Positions 43,060 to 52,494 are shown, counted from the first letter of the stretch. The stretch is 64,000 nt of DNA from Gammaproteobacteria bacterium (GCA_965238225.1 OZ250183.1:480001-544000); one strand, 5' to 3'. Notes: generated by a model from the sequence alone, not told the origin. Numbers and translations: made by a program.

Positions 43060-43419
43060 TGGCTTTGTGTTTAGCCCTAAACCAGAAATTTATCCTTAAT
43101 TGTCATTCCTTTGTAAATGAAAATGAAGACGAACGTCTTGTTGATACTAGGGTTTCTTATGCGTAGTAGATCGCTAAAAAATTAAGAATTAGTTTGAGAA
43201 TCTGATTGATAATCGGGAGCTTATTCTAGCTACCCCAGACTATATCAATAAAACAATGGTTCTGCCGAATATGATCGACAGGATATATGGTATAGAATGC
43301 ACGCTGAAAGGCTAAGACTAGAAATAGCCAGATAAAATTTGCATAATCTACTTTTGTAAAGTTCGATCGTTTTTTTTGATGTTCAGAAAATTTTATTAAC
43401 AATTTAAGAGGACTTTAAA

Positions 43420-43917
43420 ATGCCTAAAGAAAGAAAATTAACGCCAATTGCTGCAGCTCTTGGCGCAACTTTTGCTGTTTCATTAGCTACTAGCCCAGTT
43501 ACACAAGCAGCTGAGAACCCTTTTACCATGACAGAACATGGTACTGGCTATATGGTTTCTGAAGGTAAATGCGGCGAAGGTAAATGCGGCGAAGGTAAAA
43601 AAATGGAAGGTAAATGCGGCGAAGGTAAGTGCGGCGAAGGTAAAAAAATGGAAGGTAAATGCGGCGAAGGTAAATGCGGCGAAGGTAAGTGCGGCGAAGG
43701 TAAATGCGGCGAAGGTAAATGCGGCGAAGGTAAAAAAATGGAAGGTAAATGCGGCGAAGGTAAGTGCGGCGAAGGTAAAAAAATGGAAGGTAAATGCGGC
43801 GAAGGCAAGTGCGGCGAAGGTAAAAAAATGGAAGGTAAATGCGGCGAAGGCAAGTGCGGCGAAGGTAAAAAAATGGAAGGTAAATGCGGCGAAGGCAAGT
43901 GCGGCGATAGTCAATAG
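43420..43917 (+). CDS. Secreted EGKCG-repeat RiPP precursor (HvfA/oxazolin- or bufferin-like metallophore)
   Basis: AGAGGA ribosome-binding site; Sec signal ending about TQA/A; ENPF...GYMV; 17x EGKCG + 6x EGKKM; directly upstream of DUF692. Confidence 0.92.
   Translation: MPKERKLTPIAAALGATFAVSLATSPVTQAAENPFTMTEHGTGYMVSEGKCGEGKCGEGKKMEGKCGEGKCGEGKKMEGKCGEGKCGEGKCGEGKCGEGKCGEGKKMEGKCGEGKCGEGKKMEGKCGEGKCGEGKKMEGKCGEGKCGEGKKMEGKCGEGKCGDSQ
43561..43905 (+). repeat. Coding tandem repeat: 23 x 15 bp with a 45-bp higher-order unit
   Basis: Units GAAGGYAARTGCGGC (17) and GAAGGTAAAAAAATG (6), counted directly. Confidence 0.98.
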
Positions 43918-43934
43918 TCCCAAGATTTTTTAGC

Positions 43935-44792
43935 ATGTCCGAAACATATCCTGTGCAAGGTACAGGACTAGGTCTGCGGCGAGCCTTTATTGGCTCGCTT
44001 GTAGATGACCTCCCTTCCCAAGTGAATTTTATGGAAGTTGCGCCAGAGAACTGGATCGATGTTGGCGGCAATCTTGGTCGCCAATTCCGGAAAATCTCAG
44101 AACAAGTGCCGATGGTCTGTCATGGACTGTCCCTCAATATTGGTGGTTCAGCACCACTGGACGAACCATTTGTTAAACGTGTTAAGAAATTCCTAGAAAC
44201 GCATAATATACGTGTTTATAGCGAACATTTGAGTTATTGTGCTGATGATGGTCATCTTTATGACTTAATGCCAATCCCTTTTACCAAAGAGGCTGTGCGT
44301 TACGTTGCTGACAGGATAAAGCGCGTACAGGATATTATTGGACAACGCATGGCTATGGAAAATGTCTCTTATTACGCCGCCCTTGGCAAAGAGATGGAGG
44401 AAATAGAGTTTATTAATGCAGTTCTGGAAAAGGCAGATTGCCTGCTGCATATTGATATCAACAATATTTATGTAAATAGTATTAATCACAAATATGATGC
44501 TCTGGAATTTCTTAGGGCATTGCCAGGTGACAGAATCGCTTATGCACACATTGCTGGTCACTATGTTGAAGCAGAAGATCTGCGAGTCGATACCCATGGT
44601 GCAGATGTTATCAACCCGGTCTGGCAATTACTAGATGCTGCCTATGAACATTTTGGCGTACTTCCGACTTTATTGGAAAGAGATTTCAATATTCCTCCTA
44701 TGGATATCTTGTTGAAGGAAGTTGATTCAATTCGTTACTACCAAGAGAAACATCAAGCAGATGGCAATAATATCAAACAGCAAAAACACTGA
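43935..44792 (+). CDS. DUF692 multinuclear non-heme iron oxidative enzyme (MNIO; HvfB/BufB-like)
   Basis: GLGLRR, EVAPENW, HGLSL, SEHLS, ENVSYY, DINN, HIAGH, DTHG, LLERD. Confidence 0.95.
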   Translation: MSETYPVQGTGLGLRRAFIGSLVDDLPSQVNFMEVAPENWIDVGGNLGRQFRKISEQVPMVCHGLSLNIGGSAPLDEPFVKRVKKFLETHNIRVYSEHLSYCADDGHLYDLMPIPFTKEAVRYVADRIKRVQDIIGQRMAMENVSYYAALGKEMEEIEFINAVLEKADCLLHIDINNIYVNSINHKYDALEFLRALPGDRIAYAHIAGHYVEAEDLRVDTHGADVINPVWQLLDAAYEHFGVLPTLLERDFNIPPMDILLKEVDSIRYYQEKHQADGNNIKQQKH

Positions 44793-45543
44793 GTCTTTTA
44801 AAGACATACAATATGCCTTTACACGGCATATGCGCGATCCTGAAAATAATCCCGCACCGGAAGATGTAGAGGATCGGCGTATCGGCGTGTATCGAGATCT
44901 GGTGTATAACAACATAGAGGGACTTATTGCTGGTAGTTTTCCAGTATTACGCAAGATTACAGCAGACAAAGAATGGCATGACATGTTACGTGATTACGTT
45001 TGTAATCACAGAGCGCATACACCTTTGTTTCCAAGAATGCCTCTGGAGTTTATACAATACCTTGAGGATGAACGTTGTGGGCATCCGCAAGACCCAAGTT
45101 TTCTGCTGGAGTTGGCGACTTATGAATGGGCAGAAATAGCAATTTCTCTCGATGTCAGAGAAATTGAGTTAGATGGTATTGATATTGAAGGTGATTTTCT
45201 GGCGGGTATTCCGGTGTTAAACCCCATCATCATGTCGCAGACCTATCAGTATCCGGTGCATCAAATCAGTCCTGATTATTTACCAGACACTGAACCTGAA
45301 TCACCGACATATTTATTGGTTTACCGACGCAAGGGTTATGAGGTCGGATTTCTGGAATTAAATCCGGTTTCCGCGAGGTTGGTTGAATGTATGCAAGGCA
45401 ATAGTGATAAAACTGGTTTACAGTTACTAGAAGGGATAATCGAGGAGCTCAACCATTCCAGTTCCCAAGTCGTTATTGATGGCGGCCATGAAATTATGCG
45501 AGATATGCACGCTAAAGATATTCTACTTGGCACCAAAATATAG
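44761..45543 (+). CDS. DUF2063 MNIO partner protein (HvfC/BufC-like)
   Basis: QYAFTRHMRDP, RRIGVYRDLVYNN, FPVL, ELATYEWAE, YPVHQI; overlaps the DUF692 stop. Confidence 0.92.
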   Translation: MAIISNSKNTESFKDIQYAFTRHMRDPENNPAPEDVEDRRIGVYRDLVYNNIEGLIAGSFPVLRKITADKEWHDMLRDYVCNHRAHTPLFPRMPLEFIQYLEDERCGHPQDPSFLLELATYEWAEIAISLDVREIELDGIDIEGDFLAGIPVLNPIIMSQTYQYPVHQISPDYLPDTEPESPTYLLVYRRKGYEVGFLELNPVSARLVECMQGNSDKTGLQLLEGIIEELNHSSSQVVIDGGHEIMRDMHAKDILLGTKI

Positions 45544-45665: not shown

Positions 45666-47293
45666 ATGAAAGCAGCAGAGCTATTCGTGAAGTGTTTGGA
45701 GAACGAAGAGGTTGAACGTATCTACGGTATCCCTGGCGAAGAGAATATTGATGTAATGGATGCCTTGCTAGATAGCAAGATTAAATTTGTTACTACACGT
45801 CATGAACAGGGTGCCGCTTTTATGGCCGATGTTTATGGTCGGCTGACAGGACGTGCGGGGGTCTGTTTGGCAACTTTGGGTCCAGGCGCAACAAATCTTA
45901 TTACAGGCGTTGCTGATGCCAACATGGATTTGGCACCTATCATTGCCATTGCGGGTCAAGGCTCAACAAAGAGATTACACAAAGAGAGTCATCAAATTCT
46001 TGATCTGGTCAATCTTTTTGATCCAATTTCAAAATACAGTACACAAATCAGAGAGGGCGAAATTATACCTGAAATTGTGCGTAAGGCCTTTAAGGTTGCG
46101 CAGACGGAAAAGCCAGGCTGTAGTTTTATTGATTTTCCAGAAAATATTGCTGCTTCGGAAGTTGAAGGTAAGGAACCTTTATTGGTTCAAAGCCCAATGA
46201 CGCCAACACCACCAGAATCTACAATAGATGCAGCGGCAAAAATTATCTCGAATGCACGTTTTCCATGGCAGGTAATGGCGTAATACGCGCCAATGCAGAA
46301 AAACAATTGGTAAACTTTGCAGAGAAATTAAACATCCCTGTTGCTACGACCTTTATGGCAAAAGGGACAATCCCATTCTCACATAATCTATCATTGGGGG
46401 CAGTTGGTCTCCAAGCCAGTGATTATGTTTCCTGTGGTTTTGATCGCGCAGATGTTGTGATTTGTGTCGGTTATGACATTGTCGAATATCATCCGCATCT
46501 TTGGCACAAAAATCAAGACATCAAAATTATTCATATTAGCGCATTGCCCGCCGAGGTTGATGAGCACTATATTGTTGAAGTTGGTGTCATTGGAGATATT
46601 GCGCAAGCGCTAAATGGTATCGCTGAAAAATCTGATGTCAAAAACGAATATTTTGCGGCAAATCTCAGACAAACTATTGTTGATGAGATGGCTGCGCACG
46701 CTGATGACAGTGGTTTTCCTGTGAAGCCACAAAAAATATTATGGGACTTGAGGCAGGCGTTAAATCCAGAAGATGTCGTAATCAGTGATGTCGGCGCACA
46801 TAAAATGTGGGTGGCCAGAATGTATCAAGAAGAAGTATCCAATACCTGTATTATTTCAAATGGCTTTGCTTCAATGGGGATAGCTGTTCCAGGTGCCCTG
46901 GCCGCTAAGCTTGTGTTTCCAGAGCGGATAGCGGTCGCTGTGACAGGTGATGCTGGGTTTATGATGAATTCACAGGAGATAGAAACAGCCTTACGGCATA
47001 ATCTGGCATTCGTAATATTGATCTGGACGGATTCTGAATATGGATTGATTAAGTGGCATCAGCTCAGGAATTTTGGCAGACCCTCCAATATCACTTTTAA
47101 CAACCCAGATTTTATTAAATATGCCGAGAGTTTTGGTGCCAAAGGTTATCGGGTAGAAAGCGCAGCAGATTTATTGCCAACTCTTAAACAAGCGATCGCT
47201 GATAATACAGTTGTGATTGTCGATTGCCCAGTTGATTACCGTGAAAACATGAAGCTTACAGAAAAACTTGGCGATCTGGTGTGTCCAATATAG
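45666..47293 (+). pseudogene. ThDP-dependent acetolactate synthase-like / 2-oxoglutarate decarboxylase-like gene split by one frameshift near 46265
   Basis: PGEEN, RHEQGAAFMAD, TLGPGATN in the first ORF; AGNG, DVGAHK, GDAGFMM in the second; junction TTTCCATGGCAGGTAAT. Confidence 0.85.
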
Positions 47294-47377
47294 TTATATA
47301 AATAAAATTGGGAACCATATGTTGTAATCTATAAAACTTTAAGAAACTACAAACAAATCAACAAGCATTGACACTCT

Positions 47378-48391
47378 ATGGACAGAAAAGAAACATTAAA
47401 TAAAAATTTACACAAAGCAAAGACAGATAAAAAAGATGAGTTTTATACACAATTATTTGATATTGAGAAAGAATTAACACATCATAAAGAGCACTTTAAA
47501 GACAAGGTTGTTTTTTGTAATTGTGATGACCCTAGAGTAAGTAATTTTTTCCATTATTTTTCATATAATTTTGAACAATTAGGGCTTAAAAAACTCATCA
47601 CTACCTGTTATAAAAATCAGAATACGGATTTATTCAGTCAAAACACTTCAGAAAAAGCAATTTATTTAGTAAATGCAGGAGACAAAAATAAAAATAGAAA
47701 GCCCGATCCTGATGAAATTGGTATTAAGAATTTAAAAGGTGATGGCGATTTTCGTAGCCAAGAATGTATTGAGCTTTTGAAAGAGGCGGGTATTGTGGTA
47801 ACCAACCCACCTTTTTCTTTATTCAGAGAATATGTAGAACAGTTAATGGAATATGACAAAGAGTTTTTGATTATAGGAAATCAAAATGCTATAACCTACA
47901 AAGAAATTTTCAAACTGATTAAAAGAAATAAATTATGGTTAGGGGCTAGTATTCATAGCGGAGATAGAGAGTTTGGGGTTCCTAAAGATTATCCATTAAA
48001 AGCAGCGAGCAGTAGAATTGATGAAAATGGCAATAAATTTATTAGAGTTAAAGGGGTTCGTTGGTTCACTAATTTGGACTATAAAGAAAGACACGAGAAT
48101 TTAATTCTTTATAAAACATACAACGAAAAGGAATATCCAAAATACGATAATTATGATGCCATAAATATTGATAAAGCAAAAGATATTCCAATGGATTATG
48201 AAGGTGCTATGGGCGTTCCAATTACTTTTATGGATAAATATAATCCCGATCAATTTGAGATTATTGGCATTGATAGAGTTTTAGTAGAGAAATTAACAGG
48301 AAAAGTAAGTCGTTTTCGTATAGAGGGTAAAGAAAAATATGCTCGTATTCTTATTAAAAACAAAAAAATAAACTATGAGAATAGAACTTAA
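47378..48391 (+). CDS. Adenine-specific DNA methyltransferase, EcoRI family
   Basis: KKDEFYT, VFCNCDDP, GDGDFRSQEC, VTNPPFS, MGVPITF; AT-rich. Confidence 0.9.
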   Translation: MDRKETLNKNLHKAKTDKKDEFYTQLFDIEKELTHHKEHFKDKVVFCNCDDPRVSNFFHYFSYNFEQLGLKKLITTCYKNQNTDLFSQNTSEKAIYLVNAGDKNKNRKPDPDEIGIKNLKGDGDFRSQECIELLKEAGIVVTNPPFSLFREYVEQLMEYDKEFLIIGNQNAITYKEIFKLIKRNKLWLGASIHSGDREFGVPKDYPLKAASSRIDENGNKFIRVKGVRWFTNLDYKERHENLILYKTYNEKEYPKYDNYDAINIDKAKDIPMDYEGAMGVPITFMDKYNPDQFEIIGIDRVLVEKLTGKVSRFRIEGKEKYARILIKNKKINYENRT

Positions 48392-48625
48392 AGAAATTAC
48401 AGTAGGTGAATTAGCAGACAGCTTTGAGGATAACGCTGAAGACAGGATAGTAGGTTTTAAAGGCAAATTAGATATTTGTCCACCCTACCAACGAGAATTT
48501 ATATACGGGGATAAACAAAGAGATGCTGTTATTCATACCTTAAGAAAAGATTTCCCCTTAAATGTGATGAAAAATTTGCAATAGAAGAAATGGAAGCTGG
48601 AAAAGCGGGGAAATTGAGAGGGGAG
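48375..48625 (+). pseudogene. Collapsed DUF262 (GmrSD-like)-HNH restriction endonuclease
   Basis: LDICPPYQREFIY...FPLNVM joined out of frame to KCDEKFAIEEMEA (pre-HNH segment) and KAGK. Confidence 0.75.
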
Positions 48626-48680
48626 TTTGTAGATTTAAAGTATATTATTCCCAATAAAATCACAGAGATTTATATTTAAT

Positions 48681-50120
48681 ATGACTGAACATTTTTCAAT
48701 CATGATAGCTCACGTAAATTCAAAAGATAATTGCTTGGAAGTGCGTGCGCCTTATGACAGTGCGCTGATCGCAACAGTCGATACCGCTGATTCAAGCGCA
48801 GTTGAGCAAGCATTAGAAACGGCAACATCGCTTTATCAAAACCGAGACGCTTGGTTACCTGCCGAGCAAAGAATTCGCATACTGGAAAAAACTATTAACC
48901 TCATGCAAAAACGGCAGGAGGTCTTGGCTTTAGAAGCTGCGCGTGAAGGTGGTAAACCCTTACCTGACTCCAGAGTTGAAGTGGTGCGTGCTATTGATGG
49001 TGTAAAACTTTGCATAGAAACCTTACGAACCGAGTCAGGGCGCGAAATTCCGATGGGTCTTAATGTAGCTTCTAAAAGTCGTTTGGCTTTTACCCGCAAG
49101 GAACCCATTGGCGTAGTCGTTGCAGTTAGTGCATTTAATCATCCTTTAAATTTAATTGTGCATCAAATTACACCTGCTATTACAGTTGGGTGTCCTGTTA
49201 TTGTAAAACCTGCAGAAGATACACCTTTATCTTGCTTTCGCTTTGTTGAAATCTTACGAGAAGCAGGTTTGCCTGATGAATGGTGTCAGGCGCTTACTGT
49301 ATCTGATCTTGCTGTTGCATCTCAATTAGTTACTGATGAACGTGTCGATTTCTTTACTTTCATTGGCAGTGGCAAGGTTGGTTGGATGCTGCGCTCACAA
49401 CTTTCACCAGGTACACGCTGTGCGCTGGAACATGGCGGTGCGGCACCTGTAATTGTTGCGGAAGACGCTGATATTGAAGATGTGGCACCTTTACTGGCAA
49501 AAGGCGGGTTTTATCATGCAGGCCAGGTATGTGTTTCAGTGCAACGTATTTTTGCACATCACTCAGTGGCAAAGAATCTTGCGTATGCAATCGCAAAAAT
49601 AAGCGAACAATATACGATTGGTGATCCAACGTTGGCAACATCAGACATTGGCCCTTTGATTAGGAATGCGGAAACCGATCGTGTGGAAACCTGGGTCAAT
49701 GAAGCCATTGAAGAAGGTGCTGAATTAATCAGTGGCGGGAAAAGGCTATCGGATTCCTGTTATGGCTGTACGATTTTATATAAGCCATCGAACGAATCCA
49801 AAGTGAGTCAAATGGAGATATTTGGCCCTGTCATTTGTATTTACCCTTACACAGACATGGATGTTGCTATTGGACAGGCAAATGCGTTACCACTCTCGTT
49901 TCAAGCCTCGGTATTTACGCGTGATATTGATAGGGCAATGCGAGTTGCAAAAAGGATCAATGCATCTTCTGTTATGGTCAATGATCATACAGCATTTAGA
50001 ACAGACTGGATGCCCTTTGCTGGCTTGAAGCAGTCTGGTTTGGGTGTGGGAGGCATTCCCTATACTATGGAAGATATGCAGATTGAAAAAATGACAGTAT
50101 TGTATTCAAAAGAACTTTAA
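48681..50120 (+). CDS. Aldehyde dehydrogenase family protein
   Basis: AFNHP, KPAEDTP, FIGS, LEHGG, GQVCVS, EIFGP, PFAGLKQSG. Confidence 0.93.
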   Translation: MTEHFSIMIAHVNSKDNCLEVRAPYDSALIATVDTADSSAVEQALETATSLYQNRDAWLPAEQRIRILEKTINLMQKRQEVLALEAAREGGKPLPDSRVEVVRAIDGVKLCIETLRTESGREIPMGLNVASKSRLAFTRKEPIGVVVAVSAFNHPLNLIVHQITPAITVGCPVIVKPAEDTPLSCFRFVEILREAGLPDEWCQALTVSDLAVASQLVTDERVDFFTFIGSGKVGWMLRSQLSPGTRCALEHGGAAPVIVAEDADIEDVAPLLAKGGFYHAGQVCVSVQRIFAHHSVAKNLAYAIAKISEQYTIGDPTLATSDIGPLIRNAETDRVETWVNEAIEEGAELISGGKRLSDSCYGCTILYKPSNESKVSQMEIFGPVICIYPYTDMDVAIGQANALPLSFQASVFTRDIDRAMRVAKRINASSVMVNDHTAFRTDWMPFAGLKQSGLGVGGIPYTMEDMQIEKMTVLYSKEL

Positions 50121-50224
50121 AGCTTTTAACCTTGTTTTTAAACCTAAAAATTATGATGATAAATCTCACCTTAAAGTTAAAAAAGCAGTCACAAAAAACG
50201 CTGGCAAATAGAGGTAATTAACTA

Positions 50225-51733
50225 ATGTCAGAAAACATGCGAGGGTTTCTGTTTAGCGCAATGGAGTTTATGGCAGCATTGTTTATTATCATATTGGGTC
50301 TTGTTGCTTTTGCTATCGTTATCATCTACATCTTTGATGTTGCTCAGACGAAATCTTCAATTAAACGAAATTACCCTGTTGTAGGTCGCTTCAGATATTT
50401 TTTCGAACATATAGGCGAATTTTTCCGTCAGTATTTTTTCTCAATGGATCGCGAAGAGATGCCATTTAACAGGGCGCAGCGTTCTTGGGTTTATCGCGCA
50501 GCAAAAAATATTGATAATACGGTTGCCTTTGGATCAACGCGAGATCTTAGGCCGCCAGGAACAATATTATTTGCAAACTGTCCGTTTCCAACATTAGGCG
50601 AAGATACTGTCACCCCTGATGCTGTAACGATTGGGTTTTATTCAGATAAACCGTACACGACTTCATCAATATTCAACATATCAGGAATGAGTTTTGGTGC
50701 GATATCGAAGCCAGCTGTGTTGGCGTTATCAAATGGTGCACGAAGAGCAGGTTGTTGGATGAATACAGGCGAGGGCGGCTTGTCGCCTTTTCACCTTGAA
50801 GGTGGCGCGGATATCGTTTTTCAAATTGGTACTGCAAAATATGGCGTCAGAGATGAGTCAGGTGAATTGTCAGATGAAAAATTGCGTGAAATAGCAGAGC
50901 ATGACCAAGTGAAAATGTTTGAAATCAAGTTGAGCCAGGGTGCAAAACCTGGTAAGGGCGGTATATTGCCTAGCGGCAAGGTGACTAAGCAAATTGCAAA
51001 GATCAGAGGGATTGATGTCGGCATTGCTTCCATTAGTCCAAATCGGCATACGGATATTAGAAACAATGCTGACTTGCTTGATATGATTGCACACATCAGA
51101 AAAGTCACTGGTAAACCAGTAGGATTTAAATCCGCGATTGGTGTATACGGGTGGCTTGATAGTTTATTTAACGAGATTAGAGAACGTGGTGTGGAAAGCG
51201 CACCAGACTTCATCGCCGTTGATGGTTCAGATGGAGGTACAGGTGCGGCACCTATGCCTCTTATTGATGATATGGGCTTGCCTTTACGTGAAGCTCTACC
51301 TTTAGTCATTGATAGATTGAACAAATATGGCCTAAGAGACAGAGTCAAAATAATATCTTCTGGGAAATTAATTACGCCAGCAGGTGTTGCCTGGGCGCTG
51401 TGCGTCGGCGCTGACTTTGTGACATCAGCGAGAGGGTTTATGTTTGCGCTCGGGTGTATTCAAGCCTTGCAATGTAATAAGAATACCTGTCCTACAGGCA
51501 TTACAACACATAATAAGAAGCTACAACGTGGATTAAATGCTAGTGATAAGGCTATTCGTGTAATGCATTATGCAAAGAATATGACTTATGAAGTTGGCAC
51601 CATCGCTCATTCTTGCGGTGTGGCCACACCAAGGAAATTACGTCGTTTACACGCAAGAGTTGTGACTGACAACGGATTATCAGTACCATTGAATGAGTTG
51701 CATCCGGATGTTGAGTCATTATTTACATCTTGA
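50225..51733 (+). CDS. FMN-binding glutamate synthase family protein with N-terminal membrane anchor
   Basis: SGMSFGA, NTGEGG, EIKLSQGAKPGKGG, DGSDGGTGAAP, GCIQALQCNKNTCPTGI. Confidence 0.92.
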   Translation: MSENMRGFLFSAMEFMAALFIIILGLVAFAIVIIYIFDVAQTKSSIKRNYPVVGRFRYFFEHIGEFFRQYFFSMDREEMPFNRAQRSWVYRAAKNIDNTVAFGSTRDLRPPGTILFANCPFPTLGEDTVTPDAVTIGFYSDKPYTTSSIFNISGMSFGAISKPAVLALSNGARRAGCWMNTGEGGLSPFHLEGGADIVFQIGTAKYGVRDESGELSDEKLREIAEHDQVKMFEIKLSQGAKPGKGGILPSGKVTKQIAKIRGIDVGIASISPNRHTDIRNNADLLDMIAHIRKVTGKPVGFKSAIGVYGWLDSLFNEIRERGVESAPDFIAVDGSDGGTGAAPMPLIDDMGLPLREALPLVIDRLNKYGLRDRVKIISSGKLITPAGVAWALCVGADFVTSARGFMFALGCIQALQCNKNTCPTGITTHNKKLQRGLNASDKAIRVMHYAKNMTYEVGTIAHSCGVATPRKLRRLHARVVTDNGLSVPLNELHPDVESLFTS

Positions 51734-51846
51734 TGCTTTAATTTCCAAGTTACATATTCATGTCAAAGCTTTGGTATACTCAATAGTGTCGAATTGTTAT
51801 ACAAGCATCGCAAAATAGTTAGAGAAGAATCAGGAGAATAATAAAC

Positions 51847-52494
51847 ATGATCACATGCATTATCAGTAAGGTACAAGATATCTGCAATAAGGCACAGGAT
51901 ATCTTTGACAAAATACGCTCAAATATTGATTTTATAGGGCCACTGTTACTAAGAATTTATATTGTCCCTGTATTCTGGGCGGCCAGTAATAATAAATGGA
52001 ATCCATTTGCGCCAAATGGCACCCTTAATCCCATAGCAGGTTTAAAGCACACATCTGAATGGTTTGGCAGTTCATTGGGAATGCCTCTTCCGGAATTAAT
52101 GGCATTCATGGCTTGGGGCGCTGAATATTTTGGTGCCATTTTGCTTGCCTTGGGATTGGCAACACGTTGGATATCAATTCCTTTGATGTTCACAATGATT
52201 GTTGCTGCTGTGACTGTCCATTGGAAGAATTGTTGGCAGGCAGTGCACGATTTATCAAGCCCATACGCCTCTGCCAACGTAGGTGAGGCCATTGAAAGAC
52301 TCTCTCGTGCGAAAGATATTTTAAGAGAGCATGGGAATTACGATTGGCTGACGGAACATGGTAGCTTTGTTGTTTCCAATCACGGCATTGAATGGTCTGC
52401 GACTTATTTTATTATCTTGTTGGCTCTGTTCGTTACTGGCGGTGGTAAATTTGTTAGCGCTGATTATTGGTTGGCAAAGAAATTTAGGAAATAA
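51847..52494 (+). CDS. DoxX family membrane protein, of the type usually found with DUF692 clusters
   Basis: PLLLRIY..PVFW, WFG..LGMPLP, GLATRWISIPLM.TM.VA..TVH, ILREHGNYDWLT, GGG..S.D. Confidence 0.85.
   Translation: MITCIISKVQDICNKAQDIFDKIRSNIDFIGPLLLRIYIVPVFWAASNNKWNPFAPNGTLNPIAGLKHTSEWFGSSLGMPLPELMAFMAWGAEYFGAILLALGLATRWISIPLMFTMIVAAVTVHWKNCWQAVHDLSSPYASANVGEAIERLSRAKDILREHGNYDWLTEHGSFVVSNHGIEWSATYFIILLALFVTGGGKFVSADYWLAKKFRK

Follow-up and report, generated by a model that had tools for sequence, protein, structure and literature searches.

A probable captophorin cluster with a 17-motif EGKCG precursor in a gammaproteobacterium with a small genome

The DNA analysed here, a stretch of 64,000 nucleotides from a gammaproteobacterium (in the following, the window), contains three open reading frames in the same direction at 43420-43917 (165 aa), 43935-44792 (285 aa) and 44761-45543 (260 aa from ATG), confirming the co-oriented, closely spaced genes of a preliminary description of the region. 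The features of the locus are:

43216..43241, plus strand: degenerate sigmaE-like promoter (upstream alignment of 10 genus loci)
43407..43412, plus strand: ribosome-binding site AGAGGA of the precursor gene (sequence; kept in the genus alignment)
43420..43917, plus strand: HvfA/FonA-like precursor gene, 165 aa (NF050137 and NF050188 scores, homologue alignment)
43561..43905, plus strand: repeat core of 23 in-register 15-nt units (17 EGKCG and 6 EGKKM)
43935..44792, plus strand: MNIO (DUF692) maturase gene, HvfB family, 285 aa (PF05114, NF003818, 3BWW, residues)
44761..45543, plus strand: DUF2063/RRE partner gene (HvfC, PME1 type), 260 aa (PF09836, PF22106, NF050145, 3DEE)
45666..51733, plus strand: co-oriented intervening block (Pfam and model matches)
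51847..52494, plus strand: gene for a DoxX membrane protein (the single DoxX match in the genome)

The precursor consists of a predicted Sec signal (about residues 1-30), a leader of the form ENPF...GY and the repeat core. The signal was read from the hydropathy profile, in which a basic stretch is followed by a hydrophobic stretch and an AxA-like site near residue 30, and in the alignment this hydropathy-based pattern was conserved in homologues. The core is formed by 23 pentamers without interruption, mostly with a 45-nt period together with a single run of five EGKCG. All 17 cysteines are located inside EGKCG motifs and none outside the repeats, so that the number given previously was exact; EGKCG-coding matches occurred by chance at a mean of 0.02 per shuffled 64-kb window, with a maximum of 1 in 50 shuffles. 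Tandem Repeats Finder identified the array, with periods of 15 and 45, as the only one in the window. The units are near-identical at the DNA level with synonymous differences between them, the array is in frame and every cysteine is kept. All six EGKKM units have identical DNA, which is consistent with a recent expansion by slippage. The copy number is that of the assembly.

Among curated models, the precursor passed NF050137 (KCGExKCG model; 124.6 bits, cut-off 19.5) and narrowly failed the whole-protein HvfA model NF050188 (79.4 bits, cut-off 95), and a Pfam search with the precursor gave no matches. The missed NF050188 cut-off, together with the lack of cysteines outside the repeats, sets the protein apart from the HvfA equivalogs; it would work like HvfA without being an HvfA equivalog. 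Structure prediction was uninformative, with a pLDDT of 46 for the precursor alone and of 43 with a 29-sequence alignment, and thus neither supports nor rules out the published beta-helix model for this protein.

The product of the second gene was identified as a member of PF05114 (E 7e-102), passed the HvfB model NF003818 (438 bits, cut-off 360) and scored below the cut-offs of the BufB, ApyH, ChrH and MbnB models, and its nearest solved structure was 3BWW (E 7e-74). All DUF692 motifs that had been described as intact were located, namely HGLS at 63, SEH at 96, EN at 142, DINN at 174, HIAGH at 205, DTH at 219 and ERD at 248. Motif and position matching and the 3BWW alignment further placed R15, R16, N177, D219, H221, D250 and F251. 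By motif, N177, D219 and H221 match N175, D242 and H244, which are reported as essential residues of HvfB (bioRxiv 10.64898/2026.07.17.739211), and R15, R16, D250 and F251 match the reported FonB determinants R15, R16, D249 and F250 (bioRxiv 10.1101/2025.11.18.689057; PMC13097082). The third gene overlaps the MNIO gene at its 3' end; an open TTG start also exists at 44722, and the orthologue in G005, a genome of the same genus, aligns from 44761. Its product contains PF09836 and PF22106, passed the HvfC model NF050145 (275.6 bits, cut-off 142) and has 3DEE as nearest solved structure (E 5e-08). The Pfam families of both proteins were those anticipated in the preliminary description.

By these assignments, an HvfB/FonB-type MNIO with its catalytic residues, a PME1 partner and a precursor with repeated EGKCG, the cluster appears to fall into the EGKCG (Lys-Cys) group of captophorins. 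In HvfA, FonA and NgoA, EGKCG is the substrate proven to be modified (PMC11252979; PMC13097082), and over 20,000 such clusters are reported for RefSeq (PMC13097082). We consider it very probable that the locus is a vertically inherited captophorin cluster of the oxazolin/fontiphorin (Buf_EGKCG) type, in which cysteines would be converted to 5-thiooxazoles and the peptide exported through Sec to bind Cu(I) in the periplasm. This agrees with the family and the copper-binding product proposed earlier, which the curated models and the conserved catalytic residues support. Gene identities, motifs, conserved residues, synteny and purifying selection were observed directly at this locus.

The closest parallel is fonABC of Fontimonas thermophila, which likewise comprises precursor, MNIO and PME1 genes with EGKCG repeats and whose FonB shares R15, R16 and the Asp-Phe pair (249-250 in FonB, 250-251 here). 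The three-gene fonABC cluster suffices to install seven 5-thiooxazoles (bioRxiv 10.1101/2025.11.18.689057; PMC13097082), compared to 17 candidate sites here, and the present locus differs in its strict pentamer register, its EGKKM spacer and a DoxX gene 6.3 kb downstream. Oxazolin, encoded by hvfXABC of nontypeable Haemophilus influenzae, has in common with this locus the Sec signal (predicted here) and paired EGKCG, and the HvfB and HvfC equivalog models were passed. However, HvfA has 95 aa, six modified cysteines and an N-terminal disulfide, C38/C43, a pair missing from the precursor here; doxX is adjacent in hvf and probably displaced here, and the locus carries no sign of a virulence role. 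In a survey of about 2,000 Buf_EGKCG precursors of 31-506 aa (PMC12452194), repeats contain two EGKCG, as here, but are reported as 17 residues long, whereas the main period here is 15 residues; the 6.8 residues per EGKCG motif compare with 5.7-7.3 in several relatives. The bufferins Buf1 and Buf2 of Caulobacter vibrioides resemble the present system in having a related MNIO and a DUF2063 partner and, as predicted for this locus, in forming 5-thiooxazole, in export through Sec, in binding copper in the periplasm and in control by an ECF sigma factor (PMC11626156), but their precursors belong to DUF2282 and to 6/12-Cys families, neither of which includes the one found here. A bufferin (Buf1/Buf2) identity failed on the lack of a Pfam match in the precursor and on the BufB score of the MNIO (259.9 bits, cut-off 310), and a methanobactin identity on its MbnB score (TIGR04159; 41 bits, cut-off 325).

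Ring chemistry, export and copper binding are taken from the characterised homologues, from which the following course would be expected. The HvfC-like partner would bind the precursor in the cytoplasm and present it to the MNIO, a diiron enzyme that would use O2 for a four-electron oxidation of each Lys-Cys-Gly cysteine to 5-thiooxazole (-4 Da, about 305 nm). After leaving through Sec and removal of the signal, the roughly 135-aa product would bind periplasmic Cu(I) at about one ion for every two rings and so buffer copper. Full modification would lower the mass of the mature peptide, calculated at about 13.7 kDa, by about 68.5 Da. The chemistry should be read as 5-thiooxazole: the oxazolin product was reassigned to this ring by its own authors (bioRxiv 10.64898/2026.06.05.730506), and oxazolin and gonophorin are reported to have the same ring as fontiphorin (PMC13097082). 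Of the two options named before, thiooxazole has therefore stood and oxazolone/thioamide has not. HvfA has six modified cysteines and binds about one Cu(I) per pair (PMC11252979), and the load here could reach about 8 if all rings formed. The earlier expectation of about three times the modified sites of HvfA holds as arithmetic only, as HvfA produced in E. coli was about 35% fully modified (PMC11252979) and fontiphorin, which binds up to four Cu, aggregates when loaded with copper (PMC13097082). The copper stoichiometry, a protective role in the host and any contribution of the six linker methionines are inferred. Protection against copper in the periplasm has been demonstrated for bufferins (PMC11626156), whereas the physiological role of EGKCG peptides is termed open (PMC11252979; PMC13097082). 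This, and the precursor score below the whole-protein HvfA cut-off, count against the captophorin reading in its full form.

A further point against this reading is the promoter region, which suggests that regulation or expression may differ here. The genus relatives have GGAACTT and GTCC separated by 15-16 nt, a pattern (GGAACTT-N15/16-GTCC) that resembles a sigmaE promoter, whereas here the elements read GGAGCTT...GACT. The pattern was present 178-246 bp upstream in six of the seven genus relatives tested, the seventh having an atypical match only, with about 0.1 matches per relative expected by chance; this genome contained no match to it. A second, GGAACC-like element nearer to the start, at about 43358-43385, is conserved in the genus and also changed here, and both altered elements are ECF-like. 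An rpoE-rseA-like pair is retained in the genome. A scan for sigma-70 promoters and terminators gave 11 hits compared to 6.8 +/- 2.9 in shuffles, not clearly above.

Downstream of the cluster, the intervening block comprises an acetolactate-synthase-like gene, an EcoRI-type methylase with a 69-aa remnant ORF, an aldehyde dehydrogenase and a stand-alone FMN protein resembling glutamate synthase. Apart from the methylase, this order, from hvfABC through acetolactate synthase, aldehyde dehydrogenase and FMN protein to doxX, was also found in G002, G004, G005, G010 and G036. In many relatives the doxX orthologue directly follows the partner gene, and the DoxX gene here is probably a displaced fourth gene of the HvfX/BufD type; for bufferin 1, DoxX is reported to be dispensable (PMC11626156). 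An MNIO match occurred in 23 of 24 family genomes, with the usual site just downstream of lysS. The methylase and the 69-aa ORF (47378-48584) are not found at that position in relatives. This ORF follows the adenine methylase, has no Pfam match and has variant contigs nearby in the short-read runs X1 and X2; it is probably a remnant of the nuclease partner of the methylase. As a separate observation, the FMN protein recurs directly downstream of the cluster in three families, mostly just before doxX (window 45666-52494; L122 in G036, L125 in G002, L126 in G010, L133 in G342, L134 in G011, L139 in G012). It is often accompanied by acetolactate-synthase-like and aldehyde dehydrogenase genes, and often followed by a gene labelled from sequence appearance as Na+/H+ antiporter-like. 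The term 'glutamate synthase' does not occur in the main text of PMC12452194.

The preliminary description had regarded the neighbouring genes as decaying and the intact cluster as a sign of selection. In the assembly, the acetolactate-synthase-like gene is split at 46264. A short-read contig of run X1, which may be the source sample and thus not independent evidence, spans this position with 7 more bases (depth 20.5 of 20.5) that put both parts in frame, and G004 and G005 have the gene unbroken; an error of the assembly or a variant strain is indicated. Some apparent pseudogenes in the assembly may accordingly be artefacts or strain variants. Other X1 joints, whose shorter sides measure just 31 and 27 letters, skip 45817-46957 (depth 13.4) and 48760-49961 (depth 11.5) at about 40% depth, suggesting a second population with deletions inside the genes for acetolactate synthase and aldehyde dehydrogenase. 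One X1 contig, at depth 31.9, covers the genes for the MNIO and its partner without change. When ORFs of G004 from 18 sampled regions were compared, 171 of 278 had a match of at least 60% identity, and these matches were intact in 156, broken in 11 (some of which may stem from start calls) and partial in four cases; 77 of the remaining ORFs had no match and 30 were below 60%. Pairwise dN/dS was 0.04-0.11 for hvfB and 0.08-0.17 for hvfC, compared to 0.08-0.11 for lysS and 0.08-0.10 for aldehyde dehydrogenase, values that span a deep divergence and give little information on the last branch. The cluster is under purifying selection and is conserved as ordinary genes are, and no more. Decay is partly supported, by the deletion joints and the broken ORFs but not by the frameshift, which is missing from the X1 contig. 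Decaying neighbours as an argument for special selection on the cluster were rejected, as its dN/dS equals that of the neighbours and it is syntenic in relatives.

The length of the array had also been put forward as possibly new. The longest published Buf_EGKCG precursor is reported to contain 58 cysteines (Pseudoalteromonas piscicida; PMC12452194), and the class sample together with a scan for long arrays yielded eight other single genes with 17-24 motifs. Within the class sample, 94 of 400 other genomes had at least three motif matches on one strand, with a median of 7, where counts are locus-checked for G036, G042, G213 and G397 and raw for the rest; a single gene with at least 17 motifs was found in two of these 94 carriers (G232 with 18, G229 with 20). 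The unpublished genome G061 enters only the denominators of the 400-genome motif and Cu-ATPase counts. The genome-wide scan for long arrays used a narrow pattern, so that its seven loci are a floor; these were six single ORFs with 24, 18, at least 17, 18, 17 and 20 motifs and one frameshifted array (9 plus 12), with Pseudoalteromonas aurantia, Marinicella and Aestuariibacter among the hosts. Of 82 other genomes of the host's family, 71 carried at least three motifs with top single-gene counts of 16 and 15, and the host, with 17 EGKCG motifs in one gene, ranked first among the 72 family carriers examined. Within the genus, copy numbers lie between 4 and 17, with 13 in each of the two further genomes that consist of a single contig. 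A precursor homologue search gave 1-10 EGKCG each among 120 of 189 matches listed, but such word-indexed searches perform poorly with low-complexity arrays and this one was kept out of the size ranking. Arrays frequently stop where a contig ends or a scaffold has a gap and are longer in contiguous assemblies, so that databases probably undercount long ones. Seventeen motifs therefore belong to the upper tail and to the top of the own family, uncommon as the survey found them, but are already exceeded elsewhere and hence not new.

Several high counts were rejected as single genes: the 28 of G036 came from two copies, alike in appearance, at either end of the contig, the 24 of G495 from two loci, and those of G273 and G404 were likewise not from single genes. 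In G036 (C1, 9112 and 2564642) the cluster region occurs twice at the same score, which probably reflects a circular overlap left untrimmed. Methionine-rich linkers were also dismissed as a novelty, since the core contains 5-17 Met in other members and the spacer of a close relative reads KKME; in Dataset S2 of PMC13097082, the exact EGKKM spacer has no and KKMEGKCG seven occurrences. Variation in arrangement was seen elsewhere. The 20-motif precursor of G229 (L100/L131; C1, about 1147200-1147850) lies about 1 Mb from the HvfB/HvfC-like genes of that genome, which have no EGKCG precursor alongside in the locus examined. In L031 (G042) and L032 (G213), a tandem pair of EGKCG precursor genes lies ahead of a single MNIO. 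In the genus of the host, the precursor of L011 (G005) carries a segment rich in His, Lys and Glu ahead of an EGKCGG array with hexamer period, which at 5.7 residues per motif was the densest observed.

The high repeat number probably arose by slippage of the 15/45-nt unit, as in many lineages independently, and each of the long arrays compared has a homogenised linker of its own. It is possible, if somewhat short of an even chance, that the additional repeats accumulated neutrally by slippage, or in part reflect the assembly, and that the cluster of this small genome may be weakly expressed after promoter decay. The near-identical units, the range within the genus and the degenerate sigmaE-like promoter are in line with this, as is the 7-base mismatch between assembly and short reads 2.4 kb downstream of the array. 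On the other hand, the reading frame, all cysteines and the synonymous differences between units are preserved, the enzymes are intact and under purifying selection, and the 13-motif arrays of the genus occur in its other two single-contig genomes.

We regard it as unlikely that the expanded peptide, with the same chemistry, became a main arm of copper handling in lineages without P-type copper ATPases, intercepting periplasmic Cu(I), with positive selection on repeat number. Its starting point is the host assembly, a single contig of 1.72 Mb and 100% complete, in which no P-type ATPase was found with TIGR01511 or PF00122 while controls were positive in 14 of 14 cases; several other small single-contig Gammaproteobacteria likewise gave no P-type ATPase. 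A missing Cu-ATPase is frequent, with no match in 76 of 400 class genomes (1e-90) and in 32 of 83 genomes of the order (1e-60). In the class sample, where absence was rechecked with PF00122, the median was 10 motifs without (n=13) and 6 with Cu-ATPase (n=81; p 0.003). Arrays without Cu-ATPase were also longer among assemblies of at most 2 contigs (8 vs 11 genomes, p 0.016) and by family means (p 0.049). The own-family medians were 9 without Cu-ATPase (n=29), 8 with a FixI-like (n=19) and 6 with a CopA-like ATPase (n=23), the CopA/FixI split being a heuristic by E-value. However, six of the seven long-array scan genomes have a Cu-ATPase match. Of the 23 family genomes with a CopA-like ATPase, 22 are in fragmented assemblies, and contiguity by itself already predicts longer arrays (p 0.002). 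When assemblies of the same contiguity class were compared, p was about 0.05; within g327, the genus sampled best, the groups did not differ, and related genomes are not independent cases. In addition, CusBA is retained, with CusA and a CusB-like gene intact. In the mostly open-access literature searched, no link between repeat number and Cu-ATPase loss was found, and CopA is unmentioned in the captophorin and bufferin papers found there.

Similarly doubtful is a role as periplasmic copper store or donor for cuproenzymes under scarcity, in place of a detoxifying sink. Without a copper ATPase, the host keeps a multicopper protein, NirK-like by its motifs, and an aa3-type oxidase accompanied by Sco-like and CtaG-like genes, and the aa3 oxidase of Caulobacter is loaded without an ATPase. 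A chalkophore role has been raised for oxazolin (PMC11252979), and the family has been likened to copper storage proteins (PMC12452194). Against this, related pathways are reported to be induced by metal excess and loaded fontiphorin aggregates (PMC13097082), and the extremely tight Cu(I) binding of bufferin 1, with protection from excess, disfavours easy release (PMC11626156). We would also give little weight to a broader proposal, namely that Gammaproteobacteria without Cu-ATPase repeatedly expanded the array to 13-20 sites, with peptide and CusBA replacing CopA or storing copper for NirK and aa3 oxidase, and that the host is the extreme of its family, possibly released from sigmaE-type control.

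Captophorin chemistry has been worked out since 2024 and the family already counts thousands of members, and the cluster described here is mostly ordinary, adding one long member. As a compact substrate with 17 sites, the precursor is usable for testing the processivity of the enzyme and copper loading per repeat. If repeat number should prove to track loss of the copper ATPase, a link as yet unproven, the EGKCG captophorins would gain a testable function, and this would explain how some bacteria with small genomes keep cuproenzymes without CopA.
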